From positions 2,114 through 66,113 of the forward strand of contig CAZMXG010000008.1 of NCBI GenBank assembly GCA_964570175.1: a DNA stretch of 64,000 nucleotides. The letters are read 5' to 3'. A program made the translations under genes and the position numbers. The notes under the pieces are model-generated. The model was not told where the DNA came from and ran no database searches. It was given only the letters and a program-made list of their open reading frames with translations. Shown piece by piece: positions 3,568 to 47,012 of the stretch (its first letter is position 1; each line of letters opens with the position of its first letter). This DNA is from an uncultured Heliomicrobium sp. (GTDB lineage: Bacteria; Acidobacteriota; Blastocatellia; RBC074).

Positions 3568-4035
3568 CTACAGTTGCATCGTCATAAACGCGCTATTGGG
3601 ATCGTCTGTGTACGTGGAAAACGGGCCACAGTGTTCAAAGCCGAATCGTTGATATAAACGCCGGGCGGGTTCAAAAAACGCCATTGACCCTGTTTCCAGG
3701 CTCAATCTGGTGTAGTTGCGATTTTTTGCTTCCGCGATCAGATGACGCAACATCAGGCTCGCAACGCCGCGATTTCGAAACTCGGGAGCCGTCCGCATGG
3801 ATTTAATTTCTCCATGACTCCGATCAAGCTCTTTCAACGCTCCGCAACCCGCCAACACACTTCCTTCCCAGACGGTCCAGAACGTAATTTCGGGAACCCG
3901 CAGGCCTTCCAGGTCCAGCGCATGCACGCTTTCCGGCGGAGAAACCCGCCGCATATCCTGAAGGTGTTGTTCCAGCAAACGAGCGATTTCCTCACCGCGC
4001 AAATCATCAATCCGGATTTCCATCTTGTGCGTCAT
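3568..4035 (-). CDS. GNAT family N-acetyltransferase
   Basis: 155 aa. Contains MRTAPEFRNRGVASLMLRHLIAEA (RxxGxA motif) and ...ARRLYQRFGFE. Confidence 0.8.
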   Translation of the reverse strand: MTHKMEIRIDDLRGEEIARLLEQHLQDMRRVSPPESVHALDLEGLRVPEITFWTVWEGSVLAGCGALKELDRSHGEIKSMRTAPEFRNRGVASLMLRHLIAEAKNRNYTRLSLETGSMAFFEPARRLYQRFGFEHCGPFSTYTDDPNSAFMTMQL

Positions 4036-30112: not shown

Positions 30113-30755
30113 AGGTTCTCCTTTTTAAGTTACTGGCGTTTTAGATAACCACTTATTCGATGCTGCAATCTTCAGCAAACGAGAGGCCAAACATCATTCA
30201 AACTAGCTTGGCTCTGCGAACTCCAAGTAAAATATCGAGTTATCTTTTTTGTTATAGTTTCAAGAACGCAGTTCAGTAACACCACAGTCCTGTCACTTAA
30301 GAAAAACGGGGAACAAGGTCTTTAGATTGGGGAAATAAATCTTGACTGAATTCAATAATCAGTAATAGGACTTACGCAGAAGCCATCTTGAGGGATGGGT
30401 TCTTGAGTTGTTGAATGAGGTAATCACTCAACAGTCCATGTTTGAGTTGATAAACCGTGCGACCCGTTTCGGTCGCCAGTTCTTTGAGTCGGACCCAGAC
30501 CAGAAACGCGCAAGCTATAAGTAAATTCGATGCAGTGCCATGCTTGAGGTATGGCGTAGTGATTTCCCAAGTTTCTGTTTCCGTCGCTGATTATCGGCAG
30601 CCACAAAATGCTTTGCTGGAAAATGTTCGTACTCGAAGTATTCGCAATCGCATTTGCTAGCACGACTTGGCCGATTTCGCGTCAGATGATACCTTTCCCA
30701 AGCGGTGAAAACGCCGCGATCTTCCCATTTCAAAATACCGGAGAACTTGTTCGTT

Positions 30756-31970
<1,215 letters not shown>

Positions 31971-31974
31971 ATCT

Positions 31975-32045
31975 GACAGGATGAGCAGGATTTCTCAGGA
32001 TTAAGTAACAGAAAGAAATCCTGATTGAATCCTGCAAATCCTGTC
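31975..32045. repeat. Solo CAGGATT/AATCCTG hairpin element
   Basis: Left arm gacaggatgagcaggatttctcaggatt (31975-32002). Right arm aatcctgattgaatcctgcaaatcctgtc (32017-32045). About 23 of 28 positions pair. The left arm is 24/28 identical to the left arm at 42780-42807. Confidence 0.7.
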
Positions 32046-32064
32046 CATTGAAAGAAGGTCTGGA

Positions 32065-32628
32065 ATGTATTGTCCTCGTTGCGGAACGGCAAACACAGAA
32101 ACAATCAAATTCTGCCGGCAGTGCGGATTGCCCATTGCGCAAGTCAGCGGCTTTGTCGCCAGTGGAGGCACTGGCGCGCTGATCAGCCCGCCTCCAATGC
32201 ACCATCAACCATCTTTGCCGGTTCAATTGGCGGAAACGTCTGAGATGCTGGCGCTGAAGCAGAAGAGAATTATGACGATTATGGCAATGATCTTTTTGCC
32301 AATCGTATTGGCCATCATCGGCGAAGAAATGTTCAACGCGGGGGAAGTTTTTGCCGCGACGTTTTTGCTGATTCCGCTGGGAATTACCTGGGCGATCTAT
32401 CATTACAAAACGCAGTTGCGCCGGTTGCAGGAAAAACAGGTTCAACAGCATTTTGCCGCTCAACAGCCGATGTACCAGCCGACTGGTCAGGCTTACTCAT
32501 CGCCAATTCCGCAACCGGTATTTCAGGGACAGCTTGCGCCGCCGCCAACAAATCCGCTGAATGTCGCGAACCCCATTCCAAGCAGTGTGATTGAAGACGA
32601 AACGCGCAGATTTCCTGGCAGCAAGTAG
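32065..32628 (+). CDS. Zinc-ribbon membrane protein, paralogue A
   Basis: Begins MYCPRCGTANTETIKFCRQCGLPIAQVSGFVASGG, has two TM segments and a Q/P-rich tail, and ends SSVIEDETRRFPGSK. Confidence 0.6.
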   Translation: MYCPRCGTANTETIKFCRQCGLPIAQVSGFVASGGTGALISPPPMHHQPSLPVQLAETSEMLALKQKRIMTIMAMIFLPIVLAIIGEEMFNAGEVFAATFLLIPLGITWAIYHYKTQLRRLQEKQVQQHFAAQQPMYQPTGQAYSSPIPQPVFQGQLAPPPTNPLNVANPIPSSVIEDETRRFPGSK

Positions 32629-42779: not shown

Positions 42780-43231
42780 GACAGGATGTACAAGATTTTT
42801 CAGGATTGGAGGAAAAGATGGAAGACAACGCCATTACTGAAATAATCATTGGTTGTGCTTATGAAGTGCATAACAGGTTGGGCTCAGGTTTTTTTGAAAA
42901 AGTGTATGAGAACGCGTTGCGAATTGAGCTGGAAAAGCGAGGTTTGAAGGTCTTGCAGCAAGAGCCGATTAAGGTCTGGTATGAAAATCAGATTATTGGA
43001 GACTATCAAGCTGACCTATGGGTAGAGGACCGGATAATCGTAGAGCTAAAGGCAATTTTGGCTTTGAGTAAAGAAAATGAATTACAACTGGTCAATTATC
43101 TGTCTGCTACAAAAGTTGATACAGGGTTGCTTATCAATTTCGGCTCCTCCGTTCAGGTGAAACGGAAATACCGCGAATACAAGCCTTCCCAATCCAACAA
43201 AACAATCCTGAAAAATCTTGTTAATCCTGTC
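42780..43231. mobile_element. Candidate cassette: a GxxExxY gene enclosed by 28-nt inverted arms of the CAGGATT hairpin family
   Basis: The left arm gacaggatgtacaagatttttcaggatt (42780-42807) and the reverse complement of 43204-43231 (gacaggattaacaagatttttcaggatt) match at 26 of 28 positions. No transposase is present, so mobility is an inference. Confidence 0.4.
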
Positions 43232-43252
43232 TATACCCAGACAAAGAGGTAG
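42818..43252 (+). CDS. GxxExxY protein (PD-(D/E)XK nuclease-like family)
   Basis: Contains GSGFFEKVYENAL (GxxExxY), DLWVEDRIIVELK (D...ExK), and LLINFG. The ATG at 42818 has a GGAGGA RBS. The last ~16 codons (KTILKNLVNPV...) read through the right hairpin arm. Confidence 0.85.
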   Translation: MEDNAITEIIIGCAYEVHNRLGSGFFEKVYENALRIELEKRGLKVLQQEPIKVWYENQIIGDYQADLWVEDRIIVELKAILALSKENELQLVNYLSATKVDTGLLINFGSSVQVKRKYREYKPSQSNKTILKNLVNPVYTQTKR

Positions 43253-46340: not shown

Positions 46341-47012
46341 TTAGTAGAGCCAATCATTGCCAAAGCTTGGTCTGTTCGGCGCACAGCATTGTGATGGTTC
46401 AAGTTTTAACTCCGGGCTTTCGATGGTCACATTTCCATCTTTGATTTTGATTTTAATCATGCCTGACTTTTGAGTTCTCTCTAGTTTTCTGACTTCGTTC
46501 CCAAACCTAATTTTCGAGTCTGCGAATTCACCTTCGCACGAAAGCTCTTCCTTAATTGGGAATGGGAATTTAATGTTGATCGAAGCCTGAGGCTCAATTC
46601 CAAGCAGAACCACTTTATCGGAGTAGGTTTCTATCAGCAGATAAGAAATCGGTTGTGGCGATTCATTGGTGATTTGAATGTCGTTGAAATGGTCATTTGC
46701 GACGGCATTATTCCCAATCCGTAAAACTGACTCTGAATCCCAAGCGTAATCTGGGTAAACCGATCTAAAGTCCCCGTCCAGAAAATCACCTGTATAAAGT
46801 AACTTCCATTGGACAATGGGGCTGCCATCGTGAAAGACATTGAGATATGCAGCGTGTTCGATCAGAAATCGTTTCTGTGCGATTTCGACTTTGTAACGCT
46901 GACTGGGAGATAAAGTTGTGTAAAGCACTTTTCTGGTAAAGCCAAAAAACACGCCCCAAAGTAATAAGGCGATAACGCAAATAACTACTATAAAAGCCAG
47001 TTTTTTTATCAT
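46341..47012 (-). CDS. Hypothetical membrane-anchored protein
   Basis: 223 aa. N-terminal TM segment FIVVICVIALLLWGVFFGF. A+T-rich by eye. It directly abuts the upstream hydrolase gene. Confidence 0.45.
   Translation of the reverse strand: MIKKLAFIVVICVIALLLWGVFFGFTRKVLYTTLSPSQRYKVEIAQKRFLIEHAAYLNVFHDGSPIVQWKLLYTGDFLDGDFRSVYPDYAWDSESVLRIGNNAVANDHFNDIQITNESPQPISYLLIETYSDKVVLLGIEPQASINIKFPFPIKEELSCEGEFADSKIRFGNEVRKLERTQKSGMIKIKIKDGNVTIESPELKLEPSQCCAPNRPSFGNDWLY

Follow-up and report, generated by a model that had tools for sequence, protein, structure and literature searches.

An ORF-less hairpin that separates an aminotransferase from a zinc-ribbon gene is probably one member of a dispersed, REP/MITE-like family of selfish palindromes

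The locus described here lies in a window of 64,000 nucleotides, the whole stretch of DNA that was analysed, where a class-V aminotransferase gene is followed on the same strand by a zinc-ribbon protein gene and the gap between the two is occupied by a hairpin of 71 bases (Table 1). The hairpin is built from a 28-nt arm, a 14-nt loop and a 29-nt arm; this architecture had been described in an earlier note on the same DNA, and is seen both in the sequence and in the RNA fold. The note also placed the hairpin just past the aminotransferase stop and shortly before the next ATG, and the measured distances are 4 nt and 19 nt, respectively. The left arm is laid out as GACAGGAT-gag-CAGGAT-ttct-CAGGAT-t, with a spacing of 9 to 10 nt between its three hexamer cores, and the right arm as a-ATCCTG-attga-ATCCTG-caa-ATCCTGTC. 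Folded as RNA, positions 31975-32045 form three helices of 8, 9 and 8 bp with a minimum free energy of -36.3 kcal/mol, compared to -17.0 +/- 3.0 kcal/mol for 200 dinucleotide shuffles (z = -6.4), none of which was as stable (0/200). The ribosome-binding region of the downstream gene lies intact outside the stem, and is kept in relatives with and without the hairpin. Since the two genes are only 13 to 25 nt apart in relatives without the hairpin, they probably form one operon. A terminator scan of 31600-32400 returned no terminator-like site, and the stem runs into cattgaaag without a U-tract; the sole Rfam hit, to the microRNA precursor mir-2797, scores 28.7 bits where the gathering score is 74, and is a generic hairpin match.

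Table 1. Features of the hairpin locus and of the gene-bearing cassette in the same window
Feature	Position	Strand	Details
Class-V aminotransferase gene, upstream	30705-31970	+	ORF; Pfam Aminotran_5
Left arm	31975-32002	+	gacaggatgagcaggatttctcaggatt; sequence, RNA fold, nhmmer arm-model match
Loop, 14 nt	32003-32016	+	aagtaacagaaaga
Right arm	32017-32045	+	aatcctgattgaatcctgcaaatcctgtc; inverted counterpart of left arm
19-nt spacer with ribosome-binding region	32046-32064	+	purine-rich gaaagaagg, serves downstream gene
Zinc-ribbon protein gene, downstream	32065-32628	+	ORF; ATG 19 nt past hairpin
Gene-bearing CAGGAT cassette	42780-43231	+	arms 42780-42807 and 43203-43231, 452 nt
Cassette gene GxxExxY / PDDEXK_3	ORF 42806-43252	+	PF13366 at 1e-40; TIGR04256; protein at 42818-43249; ORF continues through right arm

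The hairpin is far from alone in its genome, which was searched as an assembly of 8.26 Mb in 346 contigs. GACAGGAT occurs seven times in the window against 1.17 expected, a number reached in none of 100 shuffles, and genome-wide there are 95 GACAGGAT...ATCCTGTC pairs within 140 nt (one of them a chance pair), with 0 matches to the reversed-pattern control in this genome, so that the likeness noted earlier goes beyond chance. An nhmmer model of the arm recovered 100 arm pairs, 96 of which are 51-137 nt long, and 41 single arms, whose partner has in many cases decayed. The genome-wide census that the earlier note had proposed therefore yields about 100 paired gene-less members and one gene-bearing member, ruling out its refuting case of no further members, and the gene-less copies number roughly 100-140 in all. 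Their arms follow the pattern GACAGGAT, 2-4 nt, CA(G/A/T/C)GAT, 3-5 nt, CAGGAT, with three CAGGAT/CAAGAT cores per arm spaced 9-11 nt apart across the family. Loops are mostly unique (62 of 81), apart from a few subfamilies of four to six copies with a common loop; the loop at 32003-32016 is a one-off in the genome, with no likeness to other loops or to cassette genes. Wider GACAGGAT...ATCCTGTC pairs of 0.5-2 kb (contigs C3, C22, C33, C52 and C253) proved to be chance pairs or two neighbouring solo hairpins, and none is a cassette.

Copies of the family are unevenly placed with respect to genes, in statistics that rest on a crude longest-ORF gene caller. Among the 86 copies that could be classified, same-direction genes flank 57, convergent genes 24 and divergent genes 5, in a background where 66% of gaps are same-direction, 18% convergent and 16% divergent. 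Divergent gaps are depleted (5 copies vs 13.8 expected; p = 0.007), convergent gaps are enriched (24 copies vs 15.7 expected; p = 0.025) and at least one gene 3' end adjoins 81 of the 86 copies, which nearly fill their gaps, typically lying about 20 nt past a stop and about 40 nt ahead of the next start. Three copies fell within ORFs of the crude caller: two of these ORFs were dismissed as spurious, with no Pfam match and an odd translation, and the third is an ORF of 101 aa on contig C25. A flank consensus, AAAAAAnTTTTA / hairpin / TAAAAnTTTTTT, prolongs the palindrome in the family and is absent from the copy at 31975. TA is found on both sides of 28 of 83 copies (5 expected), a pattern that a longer palindrome would produce just as well; ..ct / ca.. 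flanks the copy at 31975, which has no TA pair. No target-site duplication is visible when filled and empty orthologous sites are compared, the junctions aligning uncleanly. None of the arm pairs 0.15-3 kb apart in the genome encloses a transposase, and repeats other than CAGGAT arms flank every one of the seven Y1_Tnp matches in the genome.

The earlier note also proposed comparative genomics at this locus, and the orthologous gap, recovered from 16 species of the genus, proved to hold the hairpin, other palindromes or nothing. A CAGGAT hairpin is present in the window's genome (G000) and in G005, G006, G014, G009 and G018; an unrelated GTCAGTAGCCCG palindrome occupies the gap in G015, G007 and G011, a CACGAAG-unit hairpin in G016, another palindrome in G017 and a 371-nt insert with two hairpins in G001, and the gap is empty, with the genes 13-25 nt apart, in G003, G002, G010 and G012. 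One intergenic gap among 16 congeners has five different occupants, or none. On a poorly resolved site tree built from the adjacent 771 nt, these states are interleaved and even sister pairs are unlike (G018/G012, SH-aLRT 100; G007/G003, SH-aLRT 95), so several gains, losses or replacements are needed at the gap. The copy at 31975 is common to the window's species and to G005, G006, G014 and G009, which suggests that it entered the gap before these five species split. It is gene-less in all five, no relative carries a cassette in the gap, and related-strain contigs from other metagenomes cross the hairpin without an indel.

Similar turnover is seen at other sites. A copy at C50:19470, about 150 nt long together with its outer inverted ends and part of an 18-kb syntenic block, is missing from G005, G006 and G009. 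Where the window's genome and G006 have another CAGGAT hairpin, G005, the closest relative, has a CACGAAG hairpin instead. Another hairpin is plain in G006, holds a GTCAGTACCGCG palindrome in its loop in the window's genome and G005, and holds a CACGAAT-type hairpin in its loop in G014. Members of the family also occur within the loops of other hairpins. At least four nested or chimeric hairpins were found in the window's genome, compared to about 0.8 expected for even insertion over intergenic DNA; because nested cases exceed this expectation, hairpin tips look like preferred targets, at least as judged from these comparisons.

Beyond the genus, strict arm matches occur in 52 of the 151 genomes of the class, at 0 to 637 per genome with equal forward and reverse counts, and at 2 to 201 per genome within the genus; the reversed-pattern control was near 0 across the 151 genomes. 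This count includes one unpublished genome (G139), on which no claim rests alone, and as the genomes compared are MAGs, the numbers of repeats are minimum values. With each species represented by one genome, a scan found at least 119 stretches with matches. The matches listed include Acidobacteria (Blastocatellia / Pyrinomonadaceae, to which the window probably belongs), Verrucomicrobiota, Planctomycetota, Gemmatimonadota, Bacteroidota, Chloroflexota, Desulfobacterota, Gammaproteobacteria, Sumerlaeota, a Heliomicrobium MAG and Methanoperedens archaea, and among them are 50 gene-less hairpins and one clear GxxExxY-bearing hairpin. Paired CAGGAT hairpins are also present in IMG/VR viral contigs.

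Orthologous copies of the hairpin differ from one another at 0-2 of 40 core positions and at 9-17 of about 31 positions in the spacers and loop (Fisher p from 3e-7 to 1.5e-3 for every pair but G000/G005). The adjacent gene differs by 10-13% between those species, and the hexamer cores are more strongly conserved than this neighbouring coding sequence. Arm complementarity is 78.8% within copies and 78.4% for arms paired at random between copies, and real copies fold at -32.0 kcal/mol, chimeras at -31.8 kcal/mol (p = 0.93). Variants of the middle core agree between the two arms in 20 of 63 copies (21 expected), spacers agree between arms no more often than in shuffles, and transition mismatches yield no excess of G.U pairs on the transcribed strand (55, vs 51 on the other strand; p = 0.77). 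Because no co-adaptation links the arms of a copy, it is the sequence that is conserved and not the pairing, and the stem exists because both arms retain the family consensus. We read this pattern of substitutions as recognition of the cores by a protein, though a purely structural constraint satisfied by the cores alone may be an alternative. Core conservation could also be compatible with a host function rather than with selfish spread.

The sole arm pair that encloses a gene in this genome is the cassette at 42780, whose arms are built from the same cores; a sequence search for a solved structure of the cassette protein found none. The earlier note singled out a 24/28 match between the left arm of the hairpin and that of the cassette, and this figure is confirmed, but it marks no special link between the two. 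Compared with 198 other arms, the left arm at 31975-32002 has a median match of 22/28; because 47 of these arms reach 24/28 or more, with the cassette arms ranking about 25th, the match is a family trait. Of the two origins suggested at the time, the cargo-free or REP-like form fits the data: about 100 gene-less copies stand against one gene-bearing copy, both follow a common spacer dialect, and the same split recurs in the CACGAAG and GAATGAT families. Spacer lengths are genome-specific dialects, and the resident cassette follows that of the resident solos. The other origin, a footprint left by an excised cassette, finds no counterpart in relatives, where sites are either cleanly empty or taken over by another hairpin family, with no cassette-to-solo transitions. 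Nor were remnants of GxxExxY or four-helix-bundle genes found in a search of 81 solo loops, in which the similarities were limited to chance words of 8-13 nt.

Enclosure of small genes by tandem-unit hairpins is general in this genome. Such hairpins enclose every one of its GxxExxY genes (six) and of its 23S_rRNA_IVP (four-helix-bundle) genes (nine), the unit differing each time, and other unit families comprise 29 solos and two cassettes (CACGAAG), 10 solos (CGCAGAG) and four solos and one cassette (GAATGAT). A tree of 22 GxxExxY proteins tracks arm type: CAGGAT-armed proteins from four genera and a Verrucomicrobiota MAG form one clade (SH-aLRT 89), and groups with CACGAAG, AACGGAA, CGCAAAG and CAAAGGGT arms have support of 98-99. 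Because kinship within a genus inflates this signal, its weight is carried by the cross-family members. The function of PDDEXK_3 is listed as unknown, and the family has moved between lineages several times (PMC3424549). Of the 24 genomes with 20 or more arms, about 10 have no close homologue of the CAGGAT-type GxxExxY gene, and in the richest genome (G033, 637 arms) CAGGAT arms enclose no gene of the GxxExxY or the four-helix-bundle type. A search of G094 and of 230 loci from other taxa also turned up no four-helix-bundle gene between such arms.

Taken together, the hairpin at 31975 is probably an ORF-less member of a dispersed palindromic family of REP/MITE-type selfish DNA. The readings that compete with this one fare variously. 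That the hairpin arose by chance as an inverted repeat in low-complexity sequence has nothing beyond its repetitive arms to commend it and is hardly credible, given a fold z of -6.4, GACAGGAT at 7 vs 1.17, some 100 paired copies, a reversed control of 0 and orthologous copies in five species. A footprint of an excised GxxExxY cassette, where the gene in the loop was lost and the arms stayed, is at first sight suggested by a cassette of the same family 10.8 kb away with arms 24/28 identical, and by the common architecture and spacer dialect of gene-bearing and gene-less forms. We nevertheless judge it very improbable, as none of 81 solo loops holds gene remnants, the copy is gene-less in five species with no cassette in the gap of any relative, and the likeness of the arms is family-wide and not specific to this pair. 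Solos moreover outnumber cassettes about 100:1 in the window's genome (50:1 to 50:2 in other taxa, among the matches listed), and solo subfamilies with common loops have multiplied independently.

Two further readings make the hairpin a servant of the host. One would have it act as RNA, stabilizing, terminating or processing the operon mRNA, its spread reflecting selection for that role. The strong RNA fold, the position just past a stop codon and clear of the ribosome-binding site, the enrichment of the family beside gene 3' ends and its depletion in divergent promoter gaps all agree with such a role, as do the A-run / T-run flanks of many copies, which resemble bidirectional terminators, and the precedent of Correia elements (PMC2649163) and 23S intervening sequences (PMC4990558) as RNase III substrates. 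Against this, the copy at 31975 has no U-tract and no terminator call, unrelated palindromes occupy the gap in other species, and the operon works without the hairpin, because four congeners have nothing in the gap, their two genes being 13-25 nt apart. Selection on an RNA stem also sits poorly with arms that are not co-adapted and show no compensatory change, and with a transcribed strand on which G.U pairs are about as frequent as A.C (55 vs 51, p = 0.77); we therefore think a primary role as a host RNA element unlikely. Alternatively, the six CAGGAT sites, which form two inverted sets with a spacing of about one helical turn, could be an array on double-stranded DNA bound by a chromosome-structuring or regulatory host protein, with the hairpin incidental. 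Conservation of sequence and not of pairing, a core spacing of 9-11 nt and the same core across phyla would all fit, yet sister families with the same architecture are built from unrelated units with periods of 7-11 nt, and this variation in units and periods disfavours one host protein or a single helical phasing. Close relatives carry anything from 0 to more than 600 arms, a range hardly to be expected of a host function; no candidate for such a protein is known, and a binding array of this kind seems to us quite improbable.

We thus return to a selfish, non-autonomous palindrome as the most likely nature of the hairpin, the mobility of which is suggested by comparative patterns. Such a palindrome would have entered the aminotransferase / zinc-ribbon gap in an ancestor of the five species, sparing the ribosome-binding site, and the part of it that is recognized would be the hexamer cores, not base pairing as such. 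The best candidate for the recognizing protein would be a GxxExxY nuclease of the CAGGAT clade. Within the operon transcript, the element would form an interrupted stem of 25 bp, a plausible RNase III substrate or barrier to 3' exonucleases between the cistrons, and the cost to the host would probably be small.

A more far-reaching version of this proposal, which we advance tentatively and regard as doubtful, is that CAGGAT hairpins and CAGGAT-clade GxxExxY proteins are a REP/RAYT-like pair with another enzyme: a PD-(D/E)XK nuclease of about 125 residues might read the cores on hairpin or cruciform DNA and mobilize or maintain some 100 gene-less copies in trans, inserting them preferentially at gene 3' ends and hairpin tips. 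In its favour, the protein tree tracks arm type across genera and phyla, the resident dialect is common to the cassette and the solos, cores are conserved and pairing is not, and insertions into hairpin loops are enriched. Speaking against it, several solo-rich genomes lack the gene, and genes for four-helix bundles, which are not nucleases, share the architecture. If true, this would be the first function for the very large GxxExxY family, and would offer a mechanism for the entry of intervening-sequence-type elements into the tips of rRNA helices.

The immediate consequence for annotation is that 31975-32045 should be recorded as a repeat and not as a regulatory site peculiar to this operon. 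More broadly, the CAGGAT family joins together three subjects mostly studied separately: REP/MITE-like palindromes, hairpin-enclosed GxxExxY and four-helix-bundle (S23p/Avd-like) genes, and the intervening sequences of 23S rRNA, for the origin of which we know of no settled account since about 1990. The system is a tractable model for how palindromes spread and for what reads them. A literature search found no description of the CAGGAT repeat family, and the GxxExxY papers that it found give no account of the repeats; this analysis adds a census of the family, turnover at orthologous sites, core conservation without co-adaptation of the arms, spacer dialects and a gene tree that tracks arm type.

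Several known systems resemble the CAGGAT family in part. The intervening sequences of 23S rRNA are inserted at the tips of helix 9, 25 or 45, which the apparent preference of hairpin insertions for the tips of other hairpins recalls. They comprise an ORF-less type, found in Salmonella and others, and an ORF-bearing type, found in Coxiella and Leptospira; the Coxiella element has a 28-bp terminal stem with three tandem GACAGAT heptamers ahead of an S23p ORF, and is excised by RNase III (PMC4990558). As in these elements, terminal inverted repeats form a long stem in the CAGGAT family, closed by a short loop or by one with a small ORF, and the heptamers of the Coxiella arms closely resemble the GACAGGAT units of CAGGAT arms. 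In contrast to 23S intervening sequences, none of the CAGGAT copies examined, that at 31975 included, lies in an rRNA gene, most being placed between protein genes, the family is high-copy, and its cargo is GxxExxY and not S23p; since it is not in rRNA, the copy at 31975 is no member of that group. It would act in its operon as an ORF-less intervening sequence does.

The REP/REPIN elements with their RAYT transposases, reportedly described by Nunvar in 2010, Bertels and Rainey in 2011 and Ton-Hoang in 2012, have a Y1 transposase gene between inverted repeat copies and a GTAG head that is recognized by the RAYT. Like them, CAGGAT hairpins are high-copy extragenic palindromes beside gene 3' ends that vary in copy number between relatives, with one gene inside inverted copies, many gene-less copies dispersed, and a gene phylogeny that tracks repeat type. 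Unlike them, the enclosed gene has a PD-(D/E)XK fold (or encodes a four-helix bundle) and is not a Y1 transposase, the RAYT-like genes of the genome have other repeats, and the arms are tandem arrays of hexamer cores that end in (TA)GACAGGAT with no GTAG head. Membership of the REP class fails because no Y1/RAYT gene is flanked by CAGGAT arms.

Among MITEs, Correia elements have a TA target duplication. These elements (also CREE or NEMIS) are intergenic, number about 100-250 copies with differences between strains and, in Neisseria, form co-transcribed hairpins of 70-150 bp that are bound or cut by RNase III, altering the expression of neighbouring genes (PMC2649163). CAGGAT copies are similar to Correia/ERIC MITEs as intergenic inverted repeats of about 100 copies that are present or absent at orthologous sites; they differ from Correia elements, which have a conserved core and are known from one genus, in that the loop is not conserved and the arms span many phyla. 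Assignment to MITEs proper fails because there is no transposase-bearing parent and no demonstrable target duplication. The palindromic elements of Rickettsia (RPE) are dispersed palindromes as well, and the copy at 31975 is intergenic. In Drosophila, kilobase-scale Foldback (FB) elements have inverted arms of variable length made of tandem short repeats, most without a coding loop and a few with an ORF in the loop; they are alike in build only, being eukaryotic and unrelated in sequence, and serve as an architectural analogy. By the same kind of analogy, solo hairpins may stand to the cassette as ORF-less intervening sequences do to ORF-bearing ones, or as a MITE does to its parent element, because their architecture matches that of the gene-bearing cassettes, which in turn match ORF-bearing 23S intervening sequences. 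By architecture, the closest known counterparts of the hairpin are the intervening sequences of 23S rRNA, and by behaviour REP/REPIN and Correia/CREE elements.

At the intergenic site that holds the gene-less CAGGAT hairpin in the window, between the aminotransferase and zinc-ribbon genes, the congener G001 carries a 371-nt insert made up of two different tandem-unit hairpins, one CCATTA-type and one CACGAAG-type, with no evident open reading frame, and the orthologous site in three further congeners (G015, G007, and G011) is occupied by a palindrome related to GTCAGTACCGCGACCGGTAGGGAG. In a gap of the window's own genome (G000; L136:5929-6100), a different palindromic repeat (cgcgcagcttccagcgcgc...) stands where the closest relative, G005, has ~370 nt more, including an open reading frame.

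In G000, one CAGGAT hairpin has the palindrome GTCAGTACCGCGACCGGTAGGGAG itself within its loop, and on contig C18 a weak Y1_Tnp (RAYT-like) gene is closely followed downstream by the same palindrome. We propose that this gene and the palindrome probably form a true REP/RAYT pair, with REPs that insert into hairpin loops as well. Three RAYT-like Y1 transposase genes of G000 each possess their own classical REP arrays on the flanks (e.g., ccgtgggtcaggcacccacgg...), and several independent palindromic repeat systems therefore reside in this genome. Composite hairpins occur there as well: CACGAAG units form one arm and CAGGAT units the other in two of three cases, and in the third CACGAAG arms enclose a CAGGAT hairpin. 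These structures look as if they arose by nested insertion, with deletion or recombination as a later step.

Genomic locations of repeat-associated features and of inserts in orthologous gaps
Feature	Genome	Location
CAGGAT-clade GxxExxY gene beside a gene-less CAGGAT hairpin (locus)	G094	C94:20100-20232 (L169)
Same	G148	C11:886260-886829
Same	G020	C49:249344-249983
Hetero-arm or nested hairpin	G000	C125:about 3600-3747
Same	G000	C25:34304-34420
Same	G000	C26:about 46430-46590
RAYT-like Y1 gene with REP arrays	G000	C6:29133-29900
Same	G000	C3:106990-107750
Same	G000	C236:7300-8250
CAGGAT hairpin with GTCAGTACCGCGACCGGTAGGGAG in loop	G000	C50:8759-8895 (L136:1260-1396)
GTCAGTACCGCGACCGGTAGGGAG near Y1_Tnp gene	G000	C18:69275-69700
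Locus with the 371-nt insert	G001	C282:5250-6000 (L012)
Locus with ~370 extra nt	G005	C36:11388-11926 (L147)

In three genomes from another family of the class (G094, G148, and G020), gene and hairpin are arranged differently: a complete gene-less CAGGAT hairpin adjoins a CAGGAT-clade GxxExxY gene, directly upstream of it in G094, and the arms do not surround the gene.

Farther afield, a deltaproteobacterial MAG (JAKAJS010000232.1; L091:17-601) carries a head-to-tail array of five nearly identical 86-nt CAGGAT hairpins with a period of 112 nt, an arrangement not seen in G000. A complete CAGGAT hairpin in an archaeal MAG (Candidatus Methanoperedens; L122:414-481) could stem from horizontal transfer or from a binning error. 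Paired CAGGAT hairpins were also found on contigs classed as viral, in L202 (IMG/VR UViG_3300032677_000122) and about 12 other loci (L179-L249), with three on one 29.7-kb contig; such contigs could carry the hairpins from one phylum to another, or the hairpins could lie in the host flanks of prophages.

The terminal unit of the CAGGAT family, GACAGGAT (window 31975-31982), differs by one base from the heptamer GACAGAT, which is repeated in tandem in the Coxiella 23S rRNA intervening sequence (PMC4990558), a likeness that may be due to chance or to shared ancestry of the repeat units.
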